Shown here: positions 3,259 to 37,531 of the stretch, in pieces
Layout: each line of letters starts with the position of its first letter
How positions within the stretch are numbered: position 1 is the stretch's first letter
Assembly: GCA_039801365.1 (NCBI GenBank)
Contig: JBDRUN010000003.1
Location: 2,146 to 66,145 of the forward strand
Reading direction: 5' to 3'
DNA length: 64,000 nt
Source of the DNA: a candidate division WOR-3 bacterium
GTDB lineage: Bacteria > Hydrothermota > Tepidihabitantia > Tepidihabitantales > Tepidihabitantaceae
Program-made: the position numbers and the translations under genes
The notes under the pieces: generated by a model
Told to the model about the DNA's origin: nothing
Databases searched by the model: none
What the model saw: the letters and a program-made list of their open reading frames with translations, nothing else

Positions 3259-3798
3259 ATGCCGAGGCAAGAAAAGATAGGAGAAGTGGCCGAACTACGA
3301 GACAAGGTCAGCCGTGCTTCGGCGCTGTATTTTGTGGATTTTACTGCGGTTGGCGCAAACGACTTCAACACGGTGCGCCGGCGGCTGCGCGAAACTGGTG
3401 CAACAGTTAGGGTGGCGAAGAATCGGCTCGCGAAGCGGGCGCTAGAGGAAAACGGCGTAGCCCCGGAGGCGTTGAAGTTCCTGCGTGGGCCGACTTCGCT
3501 CGTGCTCGGCGCCGAGGACCCGATTGCGCCAGCTCGGACCCTGCGGGAGATAGTAAAAAAGATCGAAGCGTTGAAAGTGAAGGGCGCGTATGTTGACGGC
3601 GTGGTGTACTCGGCGGACAAGTTCGCATTTCTGGCCTCGCTGCCGACAAAGGCAGACCTACAGGGGCAACTTGTGGGCGTTTTGGCCGCGCCTATTCAAG
3701 CACTCGCGCTTGGACTTGAGCAGCTTGTGGCCGAGCTCGTATTCGTGATGGAAGAACTTGCGAAGCGGCCGTCCAACACCCCGGTTGAGGGCACATAG
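3259..3798 (+). CDS. rplJ: 50S ribosomal protein L10
   Basis: Start placed at the internal ATG (MPRQEKIGEVAELRDKV) preceded by GGAGGCG RBS; L10 family; the ORF-track 5' extension from 3181 overlaps rplA and is unlikely. Confidence 0.9.
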   Translation: MPRQEKIGEVAELRDKVSRASALYFVDFTAVGANDFNTVRRRLRETGATVRVAKNRLAKRALEENGVAPEALKFLRGPTSLVLGAEDPIAPARTLREIVKKIEALKVKGAYVDGVVYSADKFAFLASLPTKADLQGQLVGVLAAPIQALALGLEQLVAELVFVMEELAKRPSNTPVEGT

Positions 3799-13497: not shown

Positions 13498-14360
13498 CAT
13501 TTTGCACGCCGCAGGACGATTACGGCAAGGTTGCGGCCAGCAGTGCCGTCACGGCGGACCGAGTAGAAGTGCTCCGGGTTCTCTTTGGTGCAGAGGTCGA
13601 GCGAGCCGGCCTCGACGAGGCCCAACCCCGTGAGCAGGCTGCGGTTGGCGGAGCGGAGGTCGAGGTGGAAGCGAAAATGGTTCCAGGGTCCCAGGGTTCT
13701 AGGGTTCAAGGGGTCGAACCGTTGGCTTTCCGATACCTCCTGTTGTTCCGCTGGACGGAGGAAACGGTCGGCCGAGGGGAACTGTTGGCGAAACTCGGCG
13801 GCGACATCCTCACCTACAACGTAGCAGTCAGCGCAGATGCAGGGGCCGAGGGCGAAGTGCAGACGCGGTAGCGGAACCGAGAATCGTTCGGACATCTGTT
13901 GTGCGAGTTTCTCGGCAAGTCTGGTGGCGGTGCCCCGCCATCCGCAGTGGGCAAGGCCGACTACAGGTGGTTTGCATGACCAGATATACACCGGCAGGCA
14001 GTCCGCAACCTTGATGCCGAGTCCGATGCCGGGTAAATCGCTGAAGGCTGCGTCAGCCTCCTGTTGCTTTTCCTGCTTGTCCGGTTCGGCGAAGAATACC
14101 ACCCGTGCAGAGTGAATCTGGTTCATTGTGAAGAGTGTAGTGATGCCAAGGGCGTGCCTGACCCGACGCAGATTTTCTCTGACCGCGTGCTCTTCATCGC
14201 CAACCTGCAGGGACAGGTTCAGAGAATCGTAAGGGCCGCGCGAGACACCGCCCTTGCGGGTAGTGAAGGCTATCACAAAGCCAGGAGCGGGTTGAGACTC
14301 GTAGTATTCTATTCCATTCGCCAGGTGGATTCGCCAGTTCGCCGGAACGCAACCAGGCAT
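13494..14360 (-). CDS. pgeF: YfiH/PgeF-family protein (DUF152, laccase-domain / peptidoglycan editing factor) carrying an in-frame octamer-repeat insertion
   Basis: FTTRKGGVS..SLNLS, HAVRENL, VADCLPV, GLAHCGWRG, and C-terminal RRDG.AGRNL motifs typical of COG1496; 288 aa versus about 250 typical. Confidence 0.7.
   Translation of the reverse strand: MPGCVPANWRIHLANGIEYYESQPAPGFVIAFTTRKGGVSRGPYDSLNLSLQVGDEEHAVRENLRRVRHALGITTLFTMNQIHSARVVFFAEPDKQEKQQEADAAFSDLPGIGLGIKVADCLPVYIWSCKPPVVGLAHCGWRGTATRLAEKLAQQMSERFSVPLPRLHFALGPCICADCYVVGEDVAAEFRQQFPSADRFLRPAEQQEVSESQRFDPLNPRTLGPWNHFRFHLDLRSANRSLLTGLGLVEAGSLDLCTKENPEHFYSVRRDGTAGRNLAVIVLRRAKW
13681..13720. repeat. Octamer tandem array (TTCNAGGG, 5 copies) in-frame inside pgeF, encoding DPLNPRTLGPWNHF
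   Basis: Direct reading: ttccaggg tcccaggg ttctaggg ttcaaggg gtcgaacc. Confidence 0.8.
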
Positions 14361-16220: not shown

Positions 16221-18347
16221 CTATAACTGTTGTCTTGGTGCCAGGTGGGCTTCGACCTTTTCGAGCGAGGACCGGGCCGCGTCGTGATTCGGGTCAATAC
16301 GAATAGCCTGGGACAATGCGGCTCGAGCCGGTTCAAGGCTATCCATCGAGACGTACACCAGGCCGAGCAGGTAATAGTTTTCGGCGTTCAGCGGGTCGAG
16401 CTCGACCGCAGCCTTGTAGTGCCGGATGGCAAGTGCAAAATCGCGGCGAGCGATAGCGAGGCGGCCGCCGGCCAGCTCGGCCAGCACGCGGTTGCGCGGG
16501 TCGGTGCCGACTACCTTGGCCAACTCCCGGTACTCGGCTTCTGCCTCCTTGGTTCGGCCCAGTCCGGCATAGGCGACAAACAGTCCGTACCGGGCCACCG
16601 GGTTGGCCGGATTCGCGTCAATGGCCCGGCGGAATGCGTCGAATGCTCGGCTGCTTCCCATCGTCATGTAAGTATTTCCGGCCTGGGTCCAGGCTTGAGC
16701 AGTGTACGTTCGGCGGTCAACCGGGATGAGACCGGACCCGGCGTACAAGATGATGGCGGCGGCAGAGATAACAGCCGACCTCATCCATTTCCCTTGCCTT
16801 ATGGCTGAAACCGTCTCGGCCACGGCATACCCGGCGAACATCAGGAAGAACGGAATCACCGGCGCGCGCAGGCGGGAAAGAACGTAGAAAACGAGAGAAG
16901 ATACGAGGAAGGCGAGAATGAAGAATAGGGGATAGAGGGCCAGAGGGACAGAAGGATGAGGTCCGGCACTTGAACCCTGGAACCCCTGAACTCTGGAACC
17001 GTTCCTGCTTAGTGCTAGGAAGACACCGACCAAGCCCAAGGCTGCAATCAGGCCGAAATTCAGAAACGCAACTTTGAGCGCAACCGAGTAGGGCCAGGCA
17101 GTTTCCGGGTAGTAGTTGCTAGGAACTTCGTAATTGGACCAGAACAGGAGAAACTTGCGGGAAAGCAGCCACAGGCTCCGACCCGGGGTACGGACGACGA
17201 ATTCCAGACCTTTCCTTGTCCAGTATGCGGAGGCTTGAGACCAGGAAAGCTCCCTGCCGTCTATCATCCGGCTGATGCGCTTGAGCTGCTGATGCGAGAA
17301 GCCGGCAGTACGCTCCAGCTCGGTCTGCTGCCAGGTGCCGTCGGTCCATGGATTCCAGCCGTAGTAGAAGTTGATGCCCGAATGCGCGGTGAACAGCACC
17401 GGTTCGCGGGCAACGATGAGATTCCGAATCGGCACCACGGCGATTGTGGCCAGCGCGCAGGCGGTCATGGTGATGATAGCTCGCAGTCGTGTCGGAGCCC
17501 CCCTTCCTTTCGTTCCCTCCCCCTTGAAGGGGGAGGAAGAGGGTGAAGGTGGGCTTGCGTTCGAGCGTACTTCGAGCTGCGGTGCGGTGCGTTGTGCGGT
17601 CTGCACCCTGCGGCCTGCGCCCAGTGTGCGCCACAGGACGATGACGAACGCCGGAAGCAGGATTAGCATCTCCGGCCGGCAGATGACCAGAAGGCCAAAC
17701 GATATCCCGGCAATAGCCCAGCGCCATGACCCCCTCCCTTTCATTCCCTCCCCCTTCAAGGGGGAGGGAGAGGGTGAAGGTGGTTTCTGTCCTTTTCCTT
17801 CCTTCCCTTCTTTCTTGAAGGGAGAGGCAAGGGGTGAGGGTGAGGTTACACTCCACAGCACAAGCCACAGGGTCAGGAGTGAGAAGAACACCGTGACCTC
17901 GACATAGAGCAGAGCGCCGGTGTAGAACACGATAATGCCGGTCAGGGCGAACCCGAACGCAGCGAACAGGGCACTGGTGCGGCCAAAGATACGCCGGGTC
18001 GAGTCGTAGAGCAGGAAGCAGGAGACTGCAGCGAGGAAGCACTGGAACAACTGCACCGGGAACACCTTTGGGCCGAATATGGCATACAGCCCGGCGAGCA
18101 TGTAGGGATATAGCGGCCGCAGGAAGAAGACTTCGTTGCCCCATAAGCTCTTGTGCACGATGTCCAGGGCCCAGGTGTGGTAGTACCAGGAGTCAATCAC
18201 CTGGGCTGAGATGACCGAAAATGGATGGCCACGCATCTCCAGAATGAACCACAGCCGGATGGCGAACGTCAACACAACCGCCAGCGCGGGTAGTATCGTT
18301 GTGGTCAATGGTCGGCGGTCAGCGGTCGGCGGTCGGCGTTGCGCCAT
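16221..18347 (-). CDS. GT-C fold membrane glycosyltransferase (ArnT/PMT-like) with C-terminal TPR repeats; contains in-frame repeat insertions
   Basis: About 10 N-terminal TM helices in a pattern like dolichyl-phosphate-mannose / 4-amino-arabinose transferases; C-terminal TPR motifs (AWTQAGNTYMTMGSSRAFDAFRRAIDANP, AEAEYRELAKVV, YKAAVELDPLNAENYYLLGLVY). Confidence 0.7.
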   Translation of the reverse strand: MAQRRPPTADRRPLTTTILPALAVVLTFAIRLWFILEMRGHPFSVISAQVIDSWYYHTWALDIVHKSLWGNEVFFLRPLYPYMLAGLYAIFGPKVFPVQLFQCFLAAVSCFLLYDSTRRIFGRTSALFAAFGFALTGIIVFYTGALLYVEVTVFFSLLTLWLVLWSVTSPSPLASPFKKEGKEGKGQKPPSPSPSPLKGEGMKGRGSWRWAIAGISFGLLVICRPEMLILLPAFVIVLWRTLGAGRRVQTAQRTAPQLEVRSNASPPSPSSSPFKGEGTKGRGAPTRLRAIITMTACALATIAVVPIRNLIVAREPVLFTAHSGINFYYGWNPWTDGTWQQTELERTAGFSHQQLKRISRMIDGRELSWSQASAYWTRKGLEFVVRTPGRSLWLLSRKFLLFWSNYEVPSNYYPETAWPYSVALKVAFLNFGLIAALGLVGVFLALSRNGSRVQGFQGSSAGPHPSVPLALYPLFFILAFLVSSLVFYVLSRLRAPVIPFFLMFAGYAVAETVSAIRQGKWMRSAVISAAAIILYAGSGLIPVDRRTYTAQAWTQAGNTYMTMGSSRAFDAFRRAIDANPANPVARYGLFVAYAGLGRTKEAEAEYRELAKVVGTDPRNRVLAELAGGRLAIARRDFALAIRHYKAAVELDPLNAENYYLLGLVYVSMDSLEPARAALSQAIRIDPNHDAARSSLEKVEAHLAPRQQL
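16972..17006. repeat. Octamer tandem array (GGGTTCNA family, reverse orientation) in-frame inside the GT-C/TPR gene, encoding NGSRVQGFQGSS
   Basis: tgaaccc tggaaccc ctgaactc tggaaccg read directly. Confidence 0.75.
17497..17552. repeat. Imperfect palindromic element about 54 nt, copy 1 (CCCCTTCCTTTCGTTCCCTCCCCCTT-GAAGGGGGAGGAAGAGGGTGAAGGTGG), in-frame in the GT-C/TPR gene
   Basis: Arms are near reverse complements; length is a multiple of 3; encodes a Ser/Pro/Gly/Lys-rich loop (SPPSPSSSPFKGEGTKGRG). Confidence 0.75.
17730..17782. repeat. Imperfect palindromic element about 54 nt, copy 2
   Basis: CCCCCTCCCTTTCATTCCCTCCCCCTTCAAGGGGGAGGGAGAGGGTGAAGGTGG; 85-90% identical to copy 1. Confidence 0.75.
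17788..17846. repeat. Imperfect palindromic element, degenerate copy 3, immediately adjacent to copy 2
   Basis: CCTTTTCCTTCCTTCCCTTCTTTCTTGAAGGGAGAGGCAAGGGGTGAGGGTGAGG; same architecture. Confidence 0.6.
18310..18338. repeat. Heptamer tandem array (GGTCGGC/GGTCAGC, 4 copies) at the 5' end of the GT-C/TPR gene
   Basis: ggtcggc ggtcagc ggtcggc ggtcggc read directly; encodes RRPPTADRRPLTT at the protein N-terminus. Confidence 0.7.
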
Positions 18348-21914: not shown

Positions 21915-22438
21915 AGTGGAGGCGGGTCTATAAGCCGGGTTCTGTACCCGGACTTCGTCCGAATCCTCCGAAAGGAATAAGGAATACCTCATTCCTGATT
22001 TCGGAGCCCGGCAGAAGCCGGGCGACGGTCATTTATCTGTGCCTGCGGTTGCCCGCAGGCCTCAAGCGACCTACCCGGGACTCGAGCGGACCGGGCCAGT
22101 CCTTGTCCCGATTTGGTCTTGCACCAGGCAGGGTTTGCCCATTCCAGATGTCGCCACCCGGAATAGTGCGCTCTTACCGCACTTTTTCACCCTTACTCTG
22201 CGAGACCCTTCGCTTACGCTCAGGGCAGACCGCAGAGCGGTCTGGTTTCTGTGGCACTTTCCGTCCACGGGCCGTTTCTGACCCGCAGCCTTGCCGTTAG
22301 CAAGTGCCTTGCCCTTTGGTGCCCGGACTTTCCTCTACAGGAGAGAGTTCAAGGGGTCCAGGGTTCAAGGGTTCCAGTGAGGAACACCGAACCGGACTTC
22401 CAAGACCCGGTCCTGCAGCGACCGTCCGACCCGCCTCC
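21915..22438 (-). ncRNA. rnpB: RNase P RNA (bacterial type A) with an octamer-repeat insertion in P3 and an extra 3'-proximal hairpin
   Basis: On the minus strand: P1 GGAGGCGGGTC...GACCCGCCTCC; universal P4 GAGGAAAGTCCGGGC and ACAGAACCCGGCTTAT; ACAGAAAC; AAGGGTGAAAAAGTGCGGTAAGAGCGCAC (P10-P12); GCAAGACCAAATCGGGACAAGG; all in canonical order. About 520 nt because of insertions. Overlapping ORF-track ORFs 21576-22512 are spurious. Confidence 0.8.
22345..22378. repeat. Octamer tandem array (GGGTTCNA family) inside the RNase P RNA gene, in the P3 region
   Basis: gagttcaa ggggtcca gggttcaa gggttcca read directly; lies between P1/P2 and the GGAAAGTCCGGGC P4 strand. Confidence 0.75.
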
Positions 22439-26607: not shown

Positions 26608-27738
26608 GTGAATAGCAGGATAGTCCTCGCCATCGGCGGTAATTCCCTTATACGGGCCAAGGACAAGCAGTCTTTTTCGGACCAGCTTGCTGCAGTTGGT
26701 GACACCTGCCACCAGGTTGCCGACTTGGTCGAGGCCGGGCATGAGGTCGTCATTACCCACGGCAACGGGCCACAGGTCGGCTTCCTTCTCATTCGGTCGC
26801 ACTTGTCACGGAACCGGCTGCCGGAGACTCCACTCGATGCCGCGAATGCTCAGACCCAGGCGGAAATCGGGTACATGATTCAGCAGGCGCTCGGCAACGA
26901 GCTGAGCCGGCGGGGACTGTATCAAACCCAGAAAGCCAAGAGCCAAGGGTCAGGAGTAGAAGCTCAAAGTCCAGCCAGAGTGAATGGCGTTGTGACAGTT
27001 GTGACACAGGTGGTGGTTGACCCGAATGACCCGGCGTTTCAGAATCCGTCCAAGCCGGTCGGGCCGTTCTATACCAAGGCTGAGGCCGCGGCTCTGCAGA
27101 GAGAACTGGGCTGGACAATGCGTGAGGACGCAGGTCGCGGGTTTCGGAGATTCGTGCCGTCGCCCCGGCCAGTGGAGATTGTAGAGCTGCCGGAGATTAG
27201 GCGGTTGCTGGAGTCAGGGTTCGTGGTAATCGCCTGCGGTGGAGGAGGGATTCCGGTTGTGAGTGAGCGGACAACTCAGAGCTCAGTAGTCAGGAGTCAG
27301 AACGCAGAGTGCGGAAAACCGGAGTCGGAAGGCTGGCGGCAGGTGATGGATAGTAGGCTGTTGCGGGGAGTAGCAGCGGTGATTGATAAGGATTTGGCAT
27401 CGAGCCTACTCGCGCGGGAACTCGGCGCTGACATATTCGTGATTTCCACCGCGGTGGAGCAGGTGTATCTGGATTACGGTAAGCCAAACCAGCGGCCGCT
27501 CGGTAGCGTCAAAGCAAAAGAGATGCGGGAATACCTCTTGGCCGGTCAGTTTCCAGATGGTAGCATGGGGCCGAAGGTTGAGGCGGCCCTTTCCTTTCTG
27601 GGGCTAGATGAATTCAGGACGCAGGAAGCAGAACGCAGAATGCAGGAGCTGGGAGCGGAGCGGCAGGTTATTATCACCGACCCGGAACATATAGTGGCCG
27701 CACTGCGGGGAGAAGCGGGAACGAGAATTACAGCATGA
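26608..27738 (+). CDS. arcC: Carbamate kinase with three in-frame low-complexity insertions
   Basis: IVLAIGGNSL...HGNGPQVG...VVIACGGGGIPVV...IDKDLASSLLARELGADIFVISTAVEQVYLDYGKPNQRPLG...GSMGPKVEAA are carbamate kinase signatures; 376 aa versus about 310 typical. Confidence 0.8.
   Translation: MNSRIVLAIGGNSLIRAKDKQSFSDQLAAVGDTCHQVADLVEAGHEVVITHGNGPQVGFLLIRSHLSRNRLPETPLDAANAQTQAEIGYMIQQALGNELSRRGLYQTQKAKSQGSGVEAQSPARVNGVVTVVTQVVVDPNDPAFQNPSKPVGPFYTKAEAAALQRELGWTMREDAGRGFRRFVPSPRPVEIVELPEIRRLLESGFVVIACGGGGIPVVSERTTQSSVVRSQNAECGKPESEGWRQVMDSRLLRGVAAVIDKDLASSLLARELGADIFVISTAVEQVYLDYGKPNQRPLGSVKAKEMREYLLAGQFPDGSMGPKVEAALSFLGLDEFRTQEAERRMQELGAERQVIITDPEHIVAALRGEAGTRITA
26931..26985. repeat. arcC insertion 1 (GCAGAGT-family repeat DNA; encodes KAKSQGSGVEAQSPARV)
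   Basis: CAGGAGTAGAAGCTCAAAGTCCAG related to CAGGAGTCAGAACGCAGAGTGC (insert 2) and CAGGAAGCAGAACGCAGAATGC (insert 3). Confidence 0.6.
27270..27330. repeat. arcC insertion 2 (encodes TTQSSVVRSQNAECGKPESEG)
   Basis: Same motif family; falls between conserved carbamate kinase blocks. Confidence 0.6.
27606..27665. repeat. arcC insertion 3 (encodes EFRTQEAERRMQELGAER)
   Basis: Same motif family. Confidence 0.6.
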
Positions 27739-29090
27739 AGGGTTCAAGGGTTCGAGGGTTCAAGGGGCCGAGTGAGCAGACCGGACGATGCCAGATACCA
27801 GATAACAGATTGCAGATTGCAGAGTCCAGACCACGGAACTCAGGATTGTGCGTCCTGGCGTTCTTGGTGGTTGTTTCATCAATCTTCGCTCAGCCGGCGA
27901 TGGTGCTTATTCCGATGGACCTGACGCAGGCCGACCATCTGAAGGCGTACGGCATCGTGTATCGGCTGTTGCAGCGGGGGCAGAGAGCGGAGTGGCTTCT
28001 GAACTATCGGGGCGGTTCGTTCCTCTTGCCGGTTGAGGCTCAGGCAATGAAAGAGTGTCGGCTTGAAGGGGTGGTCTATCAGTCGGTGTCCGCGGCCGAC
28101 CTGGTACAGATCAGGCAGACTATTGATCAGAACAACATGGAGTCAGTTATGCTGGAGCGGCCAACGAGGCTGGCGGTGTACGTTCCACCCACCGCTGACC
28201 CGTGGGACGATGCGGTTCGGCTGGCCCTGGACTATGCCGGCATTCCGTACGACAAGGTCTGGGATGAGGAGGTGCTGGCCGGTAAGCTTTCCCAGTACGA
28301 CTGGCTGCATCTGCATCACGAGGATTTCACCGGCCAGTACGGCAAGTTCTATGCTTCGTACCATAACGCAGACTGGTACCAGGCCGAAGTGGCGCTGAAT
28401 ACGAAAATGGCGCGTAAGCTCGGATTCTCCAAAGTCAGCAAACTGAAGCTTGCGATTGTCGGGATGGTGCGGCAGTATGTCGCGGATGGCGGGATGCTGT
28501 TTGCAATGTGTTCGGCCACAGACACGCCGGATATTGCCTGGGCGGCACAGAATACGGATATCTGTAATCAGGTTTTCGATGGCGACGGCGTTGATCCGGC
28601 GTATCGCTCAAAGCTCGACTACAGTGGTTGTCTGGCATTCGAGAACTTTGAGCTAGTTACCGACCCAATGGTGTATGAGCACTCAGACATTGACACCTAT
28701 CTTGAGGCGACTGCCCGCGGGCCGGATACATACTTCGCACTGTTTGACTTCTCGGCCAAGTTTGACCCGGTGCCGACGATGCTGGTTCAGAACCACGTAG
28801 GGCTGGTCAAGGAGTTTCTCGGCCAGAACTGCGGGTTTCGCCGGGAGCGGCTGAAAAAGAGCACGCTCATTATGGGTGAGGTCAAGAATACCGAGGAGGT
28901 GAAGTACATTCACGGTAACTTCGGCAAGGGGACTTGGACTTTTCTCGGTGGCCACGACCCTGAGGACTACGCCCACCGCATCGGCGACCCAGTGACCGAC
29001 CTTTCCTTGCACAAGAACTCGCCTGGGTACAGGCTGATACTGAATAACGTGCTGTTTCCCGCGGCGGAGAAGAAAAAGCTGAAGACGTGA
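27735..29090 (+). CDS. Hypothetical secreted protein (possible ThuA/DUF4159-like amidotransferase-like fold); 5' end built from tandem repeats
   Basis: Long ORF with a conserved-looking core (LAVYVPPTADPWDDAVRLALDYAGIPYD, MLFAMCSATD); its first about 35 codons are the GGGTTCNA and CAGATTG arrays, so the true start is probably near 27846 (hydrophobic signal LCVLAFLVVVSSIFA). Confidence 0.45.
   Translation: MKGSRVRGFKGPSEQTGRCQIPDNRLQIAESRPRNSGLCVLAFLVVVSSIFAQPAMVLIPMDLTQADHLKAYGIVYRLLQRGQRAEWLLNYRGGSFLLPVEAQAMKECRLEGVVYQSVSAADLVQIRQTIDQNNMESVMLERPTRLAVYVPPTADPWDDAVRLALDYAGIPYDKVWDEEVLAGKLSQYDWLHLHHEDFTGQYGKFYASYHNADWYQAEVALNTKMARKLGFSKVSKLKLAIVGMVRQYVADGGMLFAMCSATDTPDIAWAAQNTDICNQVFDGDGVDPAYRSKLDYSGCLAFENFELVTDPMVYEHSDIDTYLEATARGPDTYFALFDFSAKFDPVPTMLVQNHVGLVKEFLGQNCGFRRERLKKSTLIMGEVKNTEEVKYIHGNFGKGTWTFLGGHDPEDYAHRIGDPVTDLSLHKNSPGYRLILNNVLFPAAEKKKLKT
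27739..27767. repeat. Octamer tandem array (GGGTTCAA GGGTTCGA GGGTTCAA) spanning the arcC stop
   Basis: Direct reading. Confidence 0.8.
27791..27832. repeat. Heptamer tandem array (CCAGATA CCAGATAA CAGATTG CAGATTG CAGAGTC CAGACC)
   Basis: Direct reading. Confidence 0.8.
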
Positions 29091-29096
29091 GAGCAA

Positions 29097-29136
29097 AGGG
29101 TTCAAGGCTTCCAGCGTTCCAGGGTTCGAGGGTGAG
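29097..29136. repeat. Octamer array (GGGTTCAA GGCTTCCA GCGTTCCA GGGTTCGA GGGTGAGG), left flank of four-helix-bundle gene 1
   Basis: Direct reading. Confidence 0.8.
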
Positions 29137-29163
29137 GATTTCGGGCGCGGAGACGGGCGGAGG

Positions 29164-29541
29164 ATGCTGAGGAACTACAAGGAGTTGACTGCATGGCAGC
29201 GGGCGTACGGGCTTTGTCTGGAGGTTTATCGCCTTACTGCCGAGTTTCCAAAGGAGGAGAAGTATGGGCTTGTATCTCAGATTCGGCGGGCCGCCGTGTC
29301 GGTTCCATCCAACATTGCCGAGGGATACGGCAGAAGAACCACGGGTGAGTATCTCCAGTCTCTGCATGTTGCGTACGCTTCTCTGTGCGAGCTCGAGACG
29401 CAAGTTCTCCTTGTTTCGGACCTGGGGTTCCTGAAATTGGAGCCGTCGCGGAAACTGAAGGAAGACGTTGGTGATGTCGAGCGGTTGCTCAAGGCGCTCA
29501 TCAGGTCATTGGAGCAGAAGCGTTCTGCTCCTGAACACTAG
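29164..29541 (+). CDS. Four-helix-bundle protein (TIGR02436 / 23S rRNA intervening-sequence protein family, PF05635; same family as DGR Avd)
   Basis: YKELTAWQRAYGLCLEVYRLTAEFPKEEKYGLVSQIRRAAVSVPSNIAEGYGR...SLCELETQVLL is the characteristic family sequence. Confidence 0.8.
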   Translation: MLRNYKELTAWQRAYGLCLEVYRLTAEFPKEEKYGLVSQIRRAAVSVPSNIAEGYGRRTTGEYLQSLHVAYASLCELETQVLLVSDLGFLKLEPSRKLKEDVGDVERLLKALIRSLEQKRSAPEH

Positions 29542-29572
29542 AACCCTTGAACCCTAGAATCCTGGAACCCTG
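29541..29572. repeat. Octamer array in inverted orientation (GAACCCTT GAACCCTA GAATCCTG GAACCCTG), right flank of four-helix-bundle gene 1
   Basis: Reverse complement of the GGGTTCNA family; starts in the gene's stop codon. Confidence 0.8.
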
Positions 29573-29580
29573 TCTCTGAT

Positions 29581-29847
29581 ATGTGCCTGGCCATACCGGT
29601 AAGAATTACCGAGCTTCGCGGCGATATGGCGGTCGGTGAAGTAGGCGGCATCGAGCGCGAGATTTCCGTGCTGATGACGCCGGATGTGAGAGTCGGTGAT
29701 TATGTCATAGTTCACGCCGGGTTTGCACTGCAGATTGTGGACCAGGAAGAGGCGAAGGAGAACCTCAGGATTCTTTCCGAGATGGCTCAGGTCACCGAGA
29801 AGGTTCGGCAGAAGGCGCGGCGGACTAGGCCTAACCGGACTGGGTGA
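29581..29847 (+). CDS. hypC: Hydrogenase maturation factor HypC/HupF
   Basis: Invariant MC(L/I)A(I/V)P N-terminus (MCLAIPVRI) and length of 88 aa. Confidence 0.85.
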   Translation: MCLAIPVRITELRGDMAVGEVGGIEREISVLMTPDVRVGDYVIVHAGFALQIVDQEEAKENLRILSEMAQVTEKVRQKARRTRPNRTG

Positions 29848-32205: not shown

Positions 32206-33388
32206 AAGTACCGTAGAAACGTTGGATGAGCAGAATTATACGTTCTTGCTCAGCTTCGGTCAAAGTCGGACGAATCGGTAGGTTGATGATTTCAAGGGAC
32301 GTCTGCTCGGCCACCGGGCAAGGCTGGCGGTGGTAGAGGCCGGATTGCAGATTACAGATTGCAGAGATTCCGGTCTCTGGTACCTGGCAATTGGCTTCCG
32401 GTAATGCGTGGCGCTCAAGTGCTGGCTCAAGATATACCGGCCGCTCATAGTAGCATCCGGTTTCGACTCCGTGCTTCGACAGGTAGTCGCGCAGCTTGTC
32501 CCGCTCCGGAACAAGGATGGCGTACTGGTGGTAGTTGGAAACGCAGTCCCGGTGTCCCCGGACAAGCCGCGCGACGCCGGCGAGCGCTTCGTCATACCGT
32601 GCGGCGAGCACGCGTCGCCGGGTATTCTCGGCATCAAGCCGGGCCAGTCCCAGGCGGAGCACCGCAGCCTGGATTTCGTCAAGCTGAGAGTTGTAGCCGG
32701 TCCGTATGTGTTGACCCTGTTCGTCTCTGCCGTGACGTCTCAGTTGGCCAATGGTGCGGGCTAGGGCCGGGTCCGAGGTTGCGACCGCACCGCCATCACC
32801 AAGTGCGGCAAGGTTCTTGGTGGGGTAGAAACTGAACGTGCCGGCGTTACCAAAGCTTCCGAGTTTTCTGCCCTGCCAGATCGAGCCGATCGCCTGCGAG
32901 GCGTCTTCAATCAGGGCAAGGCCGTGCTTCGCGCACAGCTCGACGAATTCCGAAACCTCTCCGCAATGGCCGAACAGATGAACCAGCAAGACTGCCTTCG
33001 TCCTTGGCGTGATAGTCGACTCGCAAGCCGCGGGGTCAAGACAGAGCGTACCAGATTCGATGTCAGCGAATACCGGAGTCGCACCCACACGAATTATTGC
33101 CTCGACTGTGGCGAAGAAGGTGAACGGTGTAGTGATGACTTCATCGCCCGGGCCGATGCCGAGTGCGTCAAGAGTCAGGACCAAAGCGTCGGTGCCGCTC
33201 TTGACCCCGAGCACGTGGCTTGCGCCCAGATAGCAGCCGAGTTCCTGCTCAAACGCGGCCAGTTCCGGCCCGGCTACAAACCGGCCGCTGGTAATGATTC
33301 GGTTCAGGATGCGAGCGTATTCATCCGCAACACACCTGGTGTTGCTTCGGATGTCATACAGCGGGATTGAGCTCGGCAAATCGGCCAA
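32198..33388 (-). CDS. DegT/DnrJ/EryC1/StrS-family PLP-dependent sugar aminotransferase
   Basis: [17 protein letters not shown], conserved Lys region ([18 protein letters not shown]), family length. Confidence 0.85.
32342..32371. repeat. Heptamer tandem array (GGATTGCA GATTACA GATTGCA GAGATTCC) inside the DegT gene
   Basis: Direct reading; same CAGATTG family as at 27791. Confidence 0.7.
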
Positions 33389-33457: not shown

Positions 33458-35494
33458 GTGGCCGACCACAGCCAGTTCAAACTCGTAGCTCCGTTCGAGC
33501 CGAGTGGGGACCAACCAGAAGCAATAGAACGACTGGTCGAGTTCATCCAGTCCGGGGCCAAGTATTCAACGCTTCTCGGTGTGACGGGTTCGGGCAAGAC
33601 CTTCACGATGGCGAATGTCATTGCCCGACTGAATCGGCCGACAATCGTCATTTCTCACAACAAAACCCTGGCCGCGCAGTTGTTCGGCGAGTTCCGTCAG
33701 TTCTTTCCGGAGAATGCGGTCGAGTACTTCATTTCCTACTACGATTATTACCAGCCTGAGGCGTATGTGCCGGAGCACGACCTGTACATCGAAAAGGATG
33801 CGTCAATCAACGAGGAAATCGAGCGACTCAGGCTGCGGGCTACCTCCAGTCTGCTGGAGCGCAGGGATGTGGTGGTGGTGGCCTCGGTTTCCTGCATCTA
33901 CAACCTGGGTGAGCCGTGGGAGTTCAGAGAGTCGGTGCTGCCGCTGGAGCAGGGCAAGGACCTGGACCGGGACGGGCTGATTGAGGAGCTGGTCAGACTC
34001 CAATACACACGGAACGATATGGAGTTGAAACGTTCGACGTTCCGAGTACGGGGCGACTTTGTGGACATTCATCCTTCACACCGGGACTACGGTCTGCGGG
34101 TGGAGTTCGACGGCAGTCAAATCAGCCGACTGACCGTGTTTGACATCGTGTCCGGGGACAACGTGGAGCAGAGGCAGCGGATGATAATCTATCCGGCCAA
34201 GCAGTTCGTCACTACTGAACGCCAGATAGAAGGCGCAATTGCCTCAATCGAACAGGAGTTGGCACAGCGGGTGAGCGAGCTTGAGTCGCAGAACAAGCTA
34301 CTTGAGGCGCAGCGGCTGGCGACCCGGACCAGGTTTGACATCGAGATGATGCGTGAGTTCGGGTACTGTCCTGGGATCGAGAACTACTCACGGCATCTGT
34401 TGGGCAAGAAACCGGGCGAGCGACCGTACTGCATGCTTGACTACTTCCCGGCCGACTACCTGATGATTATTGACGAGTCGCACGCGACAATCCCTCAGAT
34501 TCAGGGAATGTACAACGGTGACCGGGCGAGAAAGCAGACGCTTGTGGACTACGGGTTCAGGCTACCCTCGTGTCTGGATAACCGACCTTTGCGGTTCGAC
34601 GAGTTCCAGGCACTGGTAAGACAGGCAATTTTCACCTCAGCTACCCCAGGACCGTACGAGTTTGAGCACAGCCAGGGTCGTGTTGCAGAGCTGGTGGTGC
34701 GGCCAACCGGCCTTGTTGACCCGAAGATGACAATCAGGCCGACCAAGGGCCAAGTTGACCACCTGATTGGAGAGATTCGCAAGCGGGTAGAGAACCACGA
34801 GCGGACCCTGGTTACCACGTTGACCAAGCGGATGGCCGAGGACCTGGCTGAGTATCTGACTGAGATGGGGCTGAAGGTGCGCTACATGCACTCGGAGATT
34901 GACGCCATCGAGCGGGTGGAAATCCTGCGCGGGCTCAGGCTAGGTGAGTTCGACGTGCTCGTGGGGATCAACCTGCTGCGGGAGGGGCTGGACCTGCCGG
35001 AAGTGTCGCTTGTGGCGATCCTTGATGCGGACAAAGAGGGATTCCTGCGGGATGAACGTTCGCTGATTCAGACTGCGGGCCGGGCAGCGAGAAACGTGAG
35101 GGGAGAGGTGATCCTTTACGCGGACAACATCACGCGGTCAATCAGGATGGCGCTGAAGGAGACAGAACGCAGGCGGCAGAAGCAGATTGAGTACAACCTT
35201 AGGCACGGTATCGAACCGCGCTCGATACAGAAGTCAGTGGACCAGGTGCGGCTGACAACCTCGGTGGCGGACGCGAAGCCGGAGGAGCCAATAGCCAATA
35301 GCCAATGGCCAATGGCGGAGGAGGAGGACAGGATTGCGGCGCTGGACAGATTGCAGAAGGAGATGAAAGAAGCGGCGCAGAGACTGGAGTTCGAGAAGGC
35401 CGCAGAGTACCGGGACCGGATTACCCGGCTGCGCCAGCAGATTGACGACGAAGAGTGGAAGCGGGGCCGCCGCAAGCGGCTCAAGAAACGCTGA
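33458..35494 (+). CDS. uvrB: Excinuclease ABC subunit B
   Basis: [17 protein letters not shown], Walker A GVTGSGKT, helicase motifs, C-terminal UVR domain ([17 protein letters not shown]); GTG start proposed at 33458 (ORF opens at 33401); carries an in-frame CCAATAG heptamer array. Confidence 0.9.
35288..35315. repeat. Heptamer tandem array (CCAATAG CCAATAG CCAATGG CCAATGG) in-frame in uvrB, encoding [10 protein letters not shown]
   Basis: Direct reading. Confidence 0.8.
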
Positions 35495-36519: not shown

Positions 36520-36936
36520 TTGTTCCGGATTGGGGTAGCTATGGCGATAATCGAACAGAGAATAAGGTTGGTCGGGTCGAAGGGCAGCAGGGATGTGGTG
36601 GCGCTGTTTGACAGCGGCGCAAGCTATTCAATCATTCAGCCCGGTCTTGCCCGTGAGGTTGCGCGTCCAGAGCGGTTGCCCACCCCCAAGCATTTCGGAA
36701 CCGCGGAGAAGGGGCGCAAGGTTACCGCGAAGGAGTGTGTCCGGCTCGACTTCAAGCTCAACGGCCACACGCTCAGCGACGAGTTCATGGTCGTTCCCGG
36801 CATCACGGAATCGGTCATCATCGGCGCGGCTACGATGCAGAAGTGGCGCATGAAACTCGACTTCGAGCACGACCGGGTAATAGTTGACCCGCGGGTTACG
36901 AAACTGAGACTGCTCAGGCTAGGCAATAGCCAATAG
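36520..36936 (+). CDS. Retropepsin-like (clan AA) aspartic protease
   Basis: Active-site ALFDSGASYSII (D-S/T-G-A), flap and C-terminal IIGAATM motif typical of bacterial retropepsin-like proteins. Confidence 0.75.
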   Translation: MFRIGVAMAIIEQRIRLVGSKGSRDVVALFDSGASYSIIQPGLAREVARPERLPTPKHFGTAEKGRKVTAKECVRLDFKLNGHTLSDEFMVVPGITESVIIGAATMQKWRMKLDFEHDRVIVDPRVTKLRLLRLGNSQ

Positions 36937-36950
36937 GCAATGGGCAATCG
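36919..36950. repeat. Heptamer array (GGCAATA GCCAATA GGCAATG GGCAATC) bridging the protease stop and the four-helix-bundle gene 2 start
   Basis: Direct reading; provides both the TAG stop and the ATG start. Confidence 0.75.
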
Positions 36951-37314
36951 CGTGCAGTCATACCGAGACCTTGAGGTCTGGAGGAAAGCGATTGACCTCG
37001 TTACTGAGACGTATCGGCTATCGCGCAGATTCCCGAAGGACGAAATCTACTCACTTACGAGCCAGATTCGCCGGGCAGCCACTTCGATTCCGGCCAACAT
37101 CGCTGAGGGGTGGGGCCGGAATATGACGAAGGAGTATGTCCAGTTCCTGCGGATTGCCCGGGGCTCTCTACACGAACTGGAGACGCACTTGGAAGTGTCT
37201 TGTAACCTCGATTACTTCGGGCCGACCGAGTTGGACGCTATGCTCGGTAGGACGCACGAAATCAACAAGATGCTCAACAGCTTGATACGAGCCATTGAAG
37301 CCAATGGGCATTAG
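36940..37314 (+). CDS. Four-helix-bundle protein (TIGR02436 / 23S rRNA IVS protein family), paralog 2
   Basis: SYRDLEVWRKAIDLVTETYRLSRRFPKDEIYSLTSQIRRAATSIPANIAEGWGR...SLHELETHL; about 45% identical to the 29164 paralog. Confidence 0.8.
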   Translation: MGNRVQSYRDLEVWRKAIDLVTETYRLSRRFPKDEIYSLTSQIRRAATSIPANIAEGWGRNMTKEYVQFLRIARGSLHELETHLEVSCNLDYFGPTELDAMLGRTHEINKMLNSLIRAIEANGH

Positions 37315-37460
37315 GCAATGGGCGTGGCACAGGAATTAGGCAATGGGCAACAGGCATTGTTAGGCAATGGCTATTGGCTATTGCCTTCCGGAGCGGCTCC
37401 TGCCTACTGGCTTTCCGCGCCGGTCATTGTCTGTCCTGCTATTGGCTCCTGCCTATTGGC
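37306..37460. repeat. Extended degenerate heptamer region (GGCAATGG / GCATTAG / CTATTGG units in both orientations), right flank of four-helix-bundle gene 2
   Basis: ccaatgg gcattag gcaatgg ... ttaggcaatgg ctattgg ctattgc ... ctattggctcctgcctattggctaattggctg. Confidence 0.6.
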
Positions 37461-37493
37461 TAATTGGCTGCGTGCCCCTGGCACGTTTGCTGC

Positions 37494-37531
<38 letters not shown>

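Follow-up and report, generated by a model that had tools for sequence, protein, structure and literature searches.

A four-helix-bundle gene between inverted octamer arrays in a candidate division WOR-3 bacterium, best read as one copy of a widespread class of compact hairpin cassettes

Why should a small gene lying between ordinary protein-coding genes of a candidate division WOR-3 bacterium be closed on both sides by inverted arrays of octamers? The gene (gene 1, encoding a four-helix-bundle, or 4HB, protein) and its two arrays (the arms) form what we call cassette 1. It lies in a stretch of 64,000 nucleotides of contig JBDRUN010000003.1 (assembly GCA_039801365.1), referred to here as the window. 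An earlier description made from the letters alone (the sequence-only reading) had assigned the gene to the family encoded inside 23S rRNA intervening sequences (IVSs), and had taken the whole for a miniature mobile or recombinational cassette. Our best reading places cassette 1, as one copy, in a very widespread class of compact hairpin cassettes; it is probably a free-standing selfish element of the IVS type, with arms that would pair in the transcript. The protein family, PF05635/TIGR02436, is huge (at least 7860 members at E<=1e-10 among the best 8000 candidates) and without known function, and its only studied contexts are the Avd proteins of diversity-generating retroelements (DGRs) and rRNA IVSs.

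Gene 1, its arms and their counterparts in other genomes

The components of cassette 1 are as follows.

29097-29141 (+): 5' arm, G-rich octamer array AGGGTTCA AGGCTTCC AGCGTTCC AGGGTTCG AGGGTGAGG
29164-29541 (+): gene 1, four-helix-bundle protein of 125 aa (TIGR02436 / PF05635 / NF008911)
29532-29572 (+): 3' arm, C-rich octamer array GAACACTA GAACCCTT GAACCCTA GAATCCTG GAACCCTG, the reverse complement of the 5' arm
29096-29578 (+): whole cassette (arms and gene), absent from the orthologous site of locus L087; ends approximate within a few nt

Hidden Markov model searches confirm the family assignment. Gene 1 scores 120.1 bits against PF05635 (E=5.9e-35), above the curated cut-off of 33.8, as well as 118.9 bits against TIGR02436 (cut-off 24) and 138.9 bits against NF008911 (cut-off 137). 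Residues R42, S46, N50 and E53 of an RxxxSxxxNxxE motif are invariant in the family alignment, gene 1 included. The protein also matches the structure of Xcc0516 (PDB 2GSC, which consists of five chains) over residues 3-120 with E=1.9e-25. Xcc0516 is described as a homopentamer of four-helix bundles (Lin et al., 2006, as cited in PMC3936711 and PMC4990558). By homology, the product of gene 1 would likewise be a toroidal homopentamer, related to the nucleic-acid- and reverse-transcriptase-binding Avd. Orthologs of gene 1 show dN of about 0.14 and dS of 1.3-2.6 (nonsynonymous and synonymous divergence), so the protein is under purifying selection; these orthologs were reached via homologs, as an exact-sequence look-up of gene 1 gave no record.

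Both arms are of the GGGTTCNA type. Tandem Repeats Finder (TRF) places the 5' arm at 29097-29133 (period 8, 4.6 copies, AGGGTTCC type) and the 3' arm at 29532/29533-29571 (period 8, 4.9 copies, GAACCCTA type). The upstream array of the sequence-only reading stands, and its spacing, given there as 28 nt, is within 2 nt of the 30 nt that separate the TRF boundary from the ATG; a degenerate extra unit, GGGTGAGG, narrows the gap. Downstream, an inverted array of the same family was said to begin in the stop codon, and the TAG (29539-29541) does lie inside the 3' array. The single-gene unit of about 475 bp between terminal inverted repeats corresponds to a span of 476 nt (29097-29572) and to an indel of about 482 nt. 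The two arms form a predicted duplex of -55.4 kcal/mol (RNAduplex), compared with -31.8 +/- 4.6 for a shuffled 3' arm, and in the minimum-free-energy fold of 29085-29585 they pair and close the entire gene.

No promoter of its own is predicted upstream of gene 1. The sole sigma-70-like match (TGAACA-17-TAGAAT, 29532-29560, + strand) is made of 3' arm units and faces the adjacent hypC; it is a consensus match only, in a region where the count of such matches is no higher than in shuffles. The surroundings of gene 1 encode AA_kinase, an asnB-like gene, HypC, Usp, CitMHS, DegT and UvrB.

Arms of this kind were found around most members of the family that we sampled. Each gene was scored by how well its 200-nt flanks complement each other at the best local match, and arms were called at a score of at least 14. 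A first sample, for which one genome per species was scanned, gave 80 homologous loci from Desulfobacterota, Nitrospirota, Planctomycetota, Elusimicrobiota, Acidobacteriota, Bacteroidota, Chloroflexota, Gemmatimonadota, Atribacterota, the candidate phyla radiation (CPR) and others. Arms were called at 66 of the 76 4HB genes scored, compared with 13 of 339 other open reading frames (ORFs) of the same loci (87% vs 3.8%; Fisher p=4e-52). An independent replicate of 80 metagenome loci, retrieved with a second 4HB gene of the window (gene 2, described below), gave 52 of 72 against 3 of 99 (72% vs 3%; p=2e-23). Arrays do not, then, surround arbitrary genes at an equal frequency. On viral contigs, 18 4HB genes were found; arms are visible at most of them, and 12 score at least 14.

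The architecture is strict: a G/purine-rich tandem array of 7-8-nt units, a PF05635/TIGR02436 gene, and a C-rich array that is the reverse complement of the first, with about four units and about 31 nt per arm. Tables of the units show such a pair, the upstream unit being the reverse complement of the downstream one, at nearly every gene. Units are of 7 or 8 nt and nearly always contain AGG, and the median arm has 4.0 units (interquartile range 3.4-4.6), or 31 nt. The G-rich arm (G>C on the coding strand) is the 5' one in 69 of 69 loci of one sample and 48 of 49 of the other, together 117 of 118. The 3' arm commonly starts in or at the stop codon. Many family proteins end in '...NP' (AAC CCT TGA) because the stop falls in AACCCTTGA, and the arms thus shift the predicted ends of family members.

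Some arms enclose other genes. Among the 13 array-flanked ORFs counted above as other genes, three are TIGR02436 genes, one encodes a GxxExxY protein and one looks like a small GIY-YIG protein. Several of the exceptions are in this way 4HB genes themselves or small genes of selfish appearance. The GxxExxY gene (TIGR04256, E=1e-42; L059 7263-7652; compared loci carry L numbers) is bracketed by inverted arrays, as are a gene for a 96-aa GIY-YIG-like protein (L062 729-1019) and a 349-aa peptidase-like gene in another WOR-3 genome (L037 6932-7981). The arms may therefore carry cargo besides 4HB genes. Separately, many arms of the set retrieved with gene 2 (L118-L184) consist of strikingly recurrent telomere-like heptamers (such as TTAGGGA, TTAGGGG and TTTAGGG), probably a coincidence of G-rich heptamers.

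Gain and loss of the cassette as a unit

The window holds a second cassette, with arms of another sequence.

36919-36948 (+): cassette 2, 5' arm, heptamers TAGGCAA TAGCCAA TAGGCAA TGGGCAA running into the ATG of gene 2 (TRF period 7, 4.1 copies)
36940-37314 (+): gene 2, four-helix-bundle protein of 124 aa, 42% identical to gene 1
37300-37462 (+): cassette 2, 3' side, G-type heptamers at 37300-37370, then inverted C-type heptamers (CTATTGG/CTATTGC) at 37371-37462

Gene 2 is bracketed by the heptamer TAGGCAA/AGCCAAT, direct upstream and inverted downstream, unlike the repeat of gene 1; we refer to its arms as the TAGGCAA type. The 5' arm and the 3' side form a predicted duplex of -49.4 kcal/mol, compared with -36.4 +/- 4.4 for shuffled sequence. 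A metagenome search for close orthologs of gene 2 returned none above 65% identity.

At both sites, gene and arms are present or absent together, as the term cassette in the sequence-only reading implied, and alleles that lack them were found in relatives. Directly upstream of cassette 1 is a 451-aa asnB-like gene, well conserved in WOR-3. From its stop codon to the ATG of hypC there are 490 nt in the window and 8 nt in L087, an indel of about 482 nt. In L087, which encodes the asnB-like protein most similar to that of the window (92% identity), the two genes are joined by 'TGA CAGAGCAT ATG', with no 4HB gene and no arrays. In L088 and L089, 2-3 nt follow the asnB-like gene before an ARMT1-like gene that is absent from the window, and here too the 4HB gene and the arrays are lacking. 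The site is filled in the window, in L001/L006 and in L002-5, where a 4HB gene about 80% identical lies in the same place with arms; at the orthologous WOR-3 loci L001 and L002 the arms are retained with differing copy numbers. Gene 1 is a stable, syntenic resident in several lineages. The empty site of cassette 2 was located through the neighbouring retropepsin-like protease gene: syntenic L190 (UvrB ... retropepsin-like ... DUF362) has 32 nt and no arrays in place of window positions 36919-37462.

These comparisons show that the unit is gained and lost whole. In the identity matrix of the 451-aa gene, L087 comes out as sister to the window, and this implies a single gain and a single clean loss. 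The cassette entered the very short spacer just downstream of the asnB-like gene in a subclade of WOR-3 and has been passed on vertically since then. No target-site duplication is evident at the two pairs of occupied and empty junctions, the adjacent protein being 92% and 86% identical (8-14% divergence) in the compared genomes; as the placement of gaps by MAFFT was arbitrary, junctions were read by eye and by local alignment. No transposase or recombinase was found in or adjoining the cassettes.

In sequence, the repeat unit goes with the clade of the protein (Mantel r=0.48, p<=0.001). Where the protein shares at least 56% identity with that of gene 1, the octamer is AGGRTTCA regardless of phylum, in Desulfobacterota, Nitrospirota, WOR-3, Ignavibacteria, Bacteroidota and Pseudomonadota. 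The clade of gene 2 has heptamers, the nearest members having AGGCAAT, AGCCAAT or AGGGAAT. Since units go by protein clade, and a single genome contains two types, the unit belongs to the cassette rather than to the host, and gene and arms are inherited together. Most free-standing copies sampled, from more than ten phyla, thus share one strict architecture and come and go as a unit.

Likeness to rRNA intervening sequences and competing explanations

IVSs of 23S rRNA that bear an ORF are known from Coxiella burnetii, where the ORF encodes S23p, and also from Leptospira, Brucella and Haemophilus. The IVS of C. burnetii is a 428-nt 'selfish genetic element' in helix 45 of 23S rRNA with an S23p (PF05635) ORF, and its terminal inverted repeats make up a stem of 28 bp (PMC4990558). 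Just before the ATG it has three tandem GACAGAT heptamers and one degenerate copy, in numbers that vary among strains, and in vitro the preferred 5' cut by RNase III is at the first repeat; the 'functionality and origin' of IVSs are said to 'remain unclear' (PMC4990558). Genes of the 23S_rRNA_IVP domain have been reported scattered inside cas operons (PMC3936711) and in 16S and 23S insertions of CPR bacteria (PMC11270868), and both papers call the domain functionally uncharacterised.

Cassette 1 resembles these elements in several respects. The protein family is common to both (S23p = PF05635) and the sizes are alike, 428-444 nt for IVSs and about 480 nt for cassette 1. Both consist of a single ORF closed by terminal inverted repeats; the IVS stem is of about 28 bp, and the arms of cassette 1, of about 37-41 nt, close its PF05635 ORF in the same manner. 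In each, the 5' arm holds tandem repeats before the ATG, an octamer in 4.6 copies in cassette 1 and GACAGAT in three to four copies in Coxiella. The differences are that cassette 1 lies between protein-coding genes, whereas IVSs lie in rRNA, that its repeat is an octamer of different sequence, and that gene 1 is clearly under purifying selection while the Coxiella ORF is decaying. Rfam identified no rRNA in the window (only RNase P RNA and one tRNA), which bears out the earlier statement that none is nearby, and universal rRNA motifs were found in none of 191 sequences totalling 1.18 Mb (about 180 loci). An insertion in a helix of 23S or 16S rRNA was accordingly rejected for cassette 1 and for every locus examined.

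We conclude that cassette 1 is probably a free-standing, selfish cassette of the IVS type with arms that pair in the transcript, a conclusion drawn from its likeness to IVSs and from the disposition of its arms. An IVS-type element outside rRNA is a sharper description than a generic cassette, and the known IVS architecture had been missed by the sequence-only reading. The arms may pair in a read-through transcript of the host operon. The stem of about 30 bp, a size suited to RNase III, would enclose the ORF from the ribosome-binding region to the stop codon. It might serve to excise the insert from the host RNA, or to insulate it from that RNA, and might control access to the start of the 4HB gene. 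The IVSs of rRNA would then be rare copies of the cassette that landed in rRNA loops. A role at the level of the transcript is favoured by the strict polarity, with Shine-Dalgarno-like AGG units on the 5' side and CCU-rich units on the 3' side, by the length of the arms, and by their extending over the start region and the stop codon.

If so, the IVS becomes the visible tip of a general element rather than an rRNA curiosity. The class of cassettes may explain where rRNA-fragmenting IVSs come from, and experiments can now address both how IVSs arose and what a very large orphan family does. The IVS itself and the tandem heptamers of the Coxiella IVS are already known. Beyond those heptamers, the literature that we covered, incompletely, holds no account of array-flanked PF05635 genes, and no statement of a cross-phylum architecture, a strict polarity, a clade-tracking unit or a clean indel for free-standing PF05635 genes.

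Several points weigh against this conclusion. Pairing of the arms as RNA and cleavage by RNase III are things that we infer. Mismatches within the arms number 74 of the G.U-compatible kind and 71 of the A.C kind; as this is no excess, the sequences cannot tell RNA pairing from DNA pairing. Co-orientation with the neighbouring genes exceeds the background modestly (78% and 83% vs 68%). A plain stem needs no tandem repeats, so the stem model leaves the repeat structure unexplained. Arrays of the cassette types also occur alone in coding genes and in RNase P RNA (see below) and so have a life of their own, and about 13-28% of homologs have no arms at the threshold used. The authors of the Coxiella study report no in vivo evidence for the production of S23p (PMC4990558). 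As to the history of the locus, the clean loss in L087 depends on the tree of the 451-aa gene; that of the adjacent kinase is star-like, and L087 may simply never have had cassette 1.

A tentative alternative, which is compatible with an IVS-type cassette, is that the element is mobile at the level of DNA: the arms would be terminal inverted repeats or single-stranded DNA hairpins recognised by an enzyme encoded elsewhere, and the RNA stem a side effect. Such an element would resemble the repetitive extragenic palindromic (REP) sequences and REP doublets (REPINs) with the REP-associated tyrosine transposase (RAYT), the ends of the insertion sequences IS200/IS605, or foldback elements. Whole units are present or absent and their empty sites are free of arrays, and one protein clade with one unit type spans phyla and occurs on viral contigs. 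Pairs of inverted arrays without cargo, carrying the unit of a nearby cassette, look like derivatives of the kind known as miniature inverted-repeat transposable elements (MITEs). Arrays outside arms match the unit of their own cassette in 22 of 92 cases, vs 4.5 +/- 2.2 for a random cassette. The conserved extra hairpin outside the arms in 11 loci, one of them from Bacteroidota, also fits, as does the lack of G.U bias in arm mismatches. Against it, the cassettes and their immediate neighbours contain no transposase or recombinase, and the two junction pairs show no target-site duplication. The G-rich 5' polarity (117 of 118) is unexpected for a purely double-stranded DNA site unless inherited by descent, and gene 1 has kept its place and passed vertically while its protein diverged by about 20%.

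Known systems offer partial parallels. REP and REPIN elements with the RAYT transposase reportedly comprise a protein gene flanked by its own cognate short inverted repeats, and the repeats are said also to be scattered without the gene as hairpin pairs, comparable to the cargo-less pairs and same-unit arrays seen here. They differ in that the 4HB protein, for which no catalytic activity is known, does not belong to the HUH/tyrosine transposases, and in that the cassette arms are tandem arrays of 7-8 nt rather than single palindromes. The foldback (FB) elements of Drosophila have terminal inverted repeats built of short tandem repeats. Foldback elements and MITEs share with the cassettes inverted repeats of short tandem units and short gene-less derivatives, but foldback elements are eukaryotic and much longer, and no transposase or target-site duplication was seen at the cassettes. 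The short tandemly repeated repetitive (STRR) heptamers of cyanobacteria are reportedly dispersed in the genome, and are alike in being tandem heptamers scattered through a bacterial genome; we found no paper that links STRR sequences to PF05635 genes or to paired inverted arrays.

It is unlikely, though compatible with either an IVS-type or a DNA-level element, that the cassette's own 4HB pentamer binds the arms as arrays of sites, with about one unit per subunit, and that the protein autoregulates, protects or propagates them. The median of 4.0 units per arm (interquartile range 3.4-4.6) would suit a protein like Xcc0516, a homopentamer of four-helix bundles, and the unit co-varies with the protein clade in both sequence and period. 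Purifying selection on the protein and the solo and cargo-less arrays of the same unit near cassettes are also as expected. Co-inheritance of gene and arms explains the co-variation equally well, however, and about four copies also simply yield a stem as long as an RNase III substrate, about 30 bp. To our knowledge, no sequence-specific binding has been described for the PF05635/TIGR02436 family.

More speculative, and in our view distinctly improbable, is that the 4HB pentamer and the arrays form a new kind of self-propagating system. The pentamer would recognise its own 7-8-nt unit in trans, and so maintain or spread gene-bearing cassettes, gene-less hairpins, and solo arrays that lie in frame in proteins and in loops of structured RNAs (P3 of RNase P RNA, helices of rRNA). 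If true, one of the largest uncharacterised families of bacterial proteins would gain a function, the source of rRNA IVSs would be explained, and there would be a hint of what Avd was before its recruitment to DGRs.

Relationship to a DGR was considered because of weak similarity of gene 1 to Avd (PF22296, 23.6 bits; NF033474, 25.2 bits; PHROG 'Avd protein of DGR', E=9e-11). The folds are homologous four-helix bundles; bAvd is reportedly a pentameric barrel, as Xcc0516 is. Scores are far under the Avd cut-offs of 40 and 80 bits, the NF033474 equivalog giving 25.2 and 29 bits against a cut-off of 80. As in the sequence-only reading, no reverse transcriptase was found among the neighbouring genes that received a Pfam assignment, and the neighbourhood at 19-40 kb of the window has no direct repeats of at least 45 nt of the template/variable repeat type. 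With these results we rejected cassette 1 as a remnant or component of a DGR (that is, gene 1 as an avd gene), which is extremely improbable. We know of no tandem-array arms around avd in the DGR literature. A known anti-phage defence system was also rejected, as the PADLOC-DB models gave no match at E<=0.01.

Chance juxtaposition in a repeat-dense genome, which might be suspected from some 20 such arrays between 13.6 and 37.5 kb of the window, some inside genes, and from the upstream 451-aa gene being itself flanked by two arrays of the same family, is ruled out as an explanation of cassette 1, with hardly any probability left to it, by a second paralog bracketed by a repeat of another type, the enrichment in two independent samples (87% vs 3.8% and 72% vs 3%), the polarity of 117 to 1, and arms that are conserved at orthologous loci and absent together with the gene at empty sites.

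Arrays outside the cassettes and neighbouring features

Several arrays of the window lie in frame within genes.

27738-27772 by TRF, within 27738-27830 (+): G-type octamer array(s) of the cassette 1 unit family, in frame in the 5' end of the 451-aa asnB-like gene
27610-27647: in-frame 7-8-nt array in the carbamate-kinase-like gene
35286-35313: in-frame 7-8-nt array in uvrB
13679-13712: in-frame 7-8-nt array in a YfiH-like gene
16929-17000: in-frame 7-8-nt array in the gene of a 708-aa membrane/TPR protein
32343-32365: in-frame 7-8-nt array in a DegT-like gene

Housekeeping proteins of this WOR-3 lineage gain in-frame peptides from arrays of the cassette types. About 19 residues of the kinase come from its array, and L088 and L001 lack them. 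That at 27738-27772 is missing at the same position in L087, L088 and L001; it forms a predicted duplex of -60.0 kcal/mol with the 3' arm of cassette 1 and is thus an alternative pairing partner.

An array is also present in a structured RNA. The gene for bacterial RNase P RNA (21915-22437, - strand; Rfam 260.9 bits) is 523 nt long, compared with a model of 367 positions. Its P3 loop has an insertion of 66 nt with an octamer array (22347-22377) of the unit family of the cassette 1 arms. The RNase P RNA of L001 (about 1500-1990, - strand) has an array at the equivalent place.

In other genomes, pairs of inverted arrays with no cargo or a tiny one were identified at the following positions.

L049 7064-7252
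L086 6852-7058
L045 2598-2728
L001 6304-6366
L010 7834-7921

In these, a G-type array is followed by a complementary C-type array within 6-140 nt, and the unit is that of a 4HB cassette about 2 kb away. Also identified was a small hairpin, TCTCC(C)AA-N3-5-TTGG(G)AGAAGAAC, conserved just outside the 3' arm, 18-73 nt past the end of the 4HB gene. It occurs at L013, L016, L018, L024, L025, L027, L030, L033, L036 and L041, at 18-30 nt in all except L025, and the 5' arm has a related motif, CATCTCCAA..TTGG.GAT, immediately on its outer side. The outer hairpin was found in Desulfobacterota and at one Cyclobacteriaceae locus, and either belongs to a larger element or marks a preferred target.

Adjoining gene 2 is the retropepsin-like gene (36541-36936, + strand, 131 aa). 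Its homologs are 60-88% identical and are named as coming from WOR-3, Dehalococcoidia/Chloroflexi and a Thermoplasmata archaeon, a distribution unusually broad and tight for a small gene. The closest relatives are 149-170 aa long because their C-termini continue beyond the place that the array occupies in the window. A (GACA) microsatellite at 37494-37531 has 9.5 copies in the window and about 3 in syntenic L190 (about 3440-3452). Finally, a peptide-encoding insert occurs twice in the ORF of the 708-aa protein, at 17250-17900 (- strand), as '...SPSPLKGEGMKGRG...' and '...SSSPFKGEGTKGRG...'. The opposite-strand frames show mirror-image versions of the insert, which suggest another family of palindromic repeats that inserted in frame.

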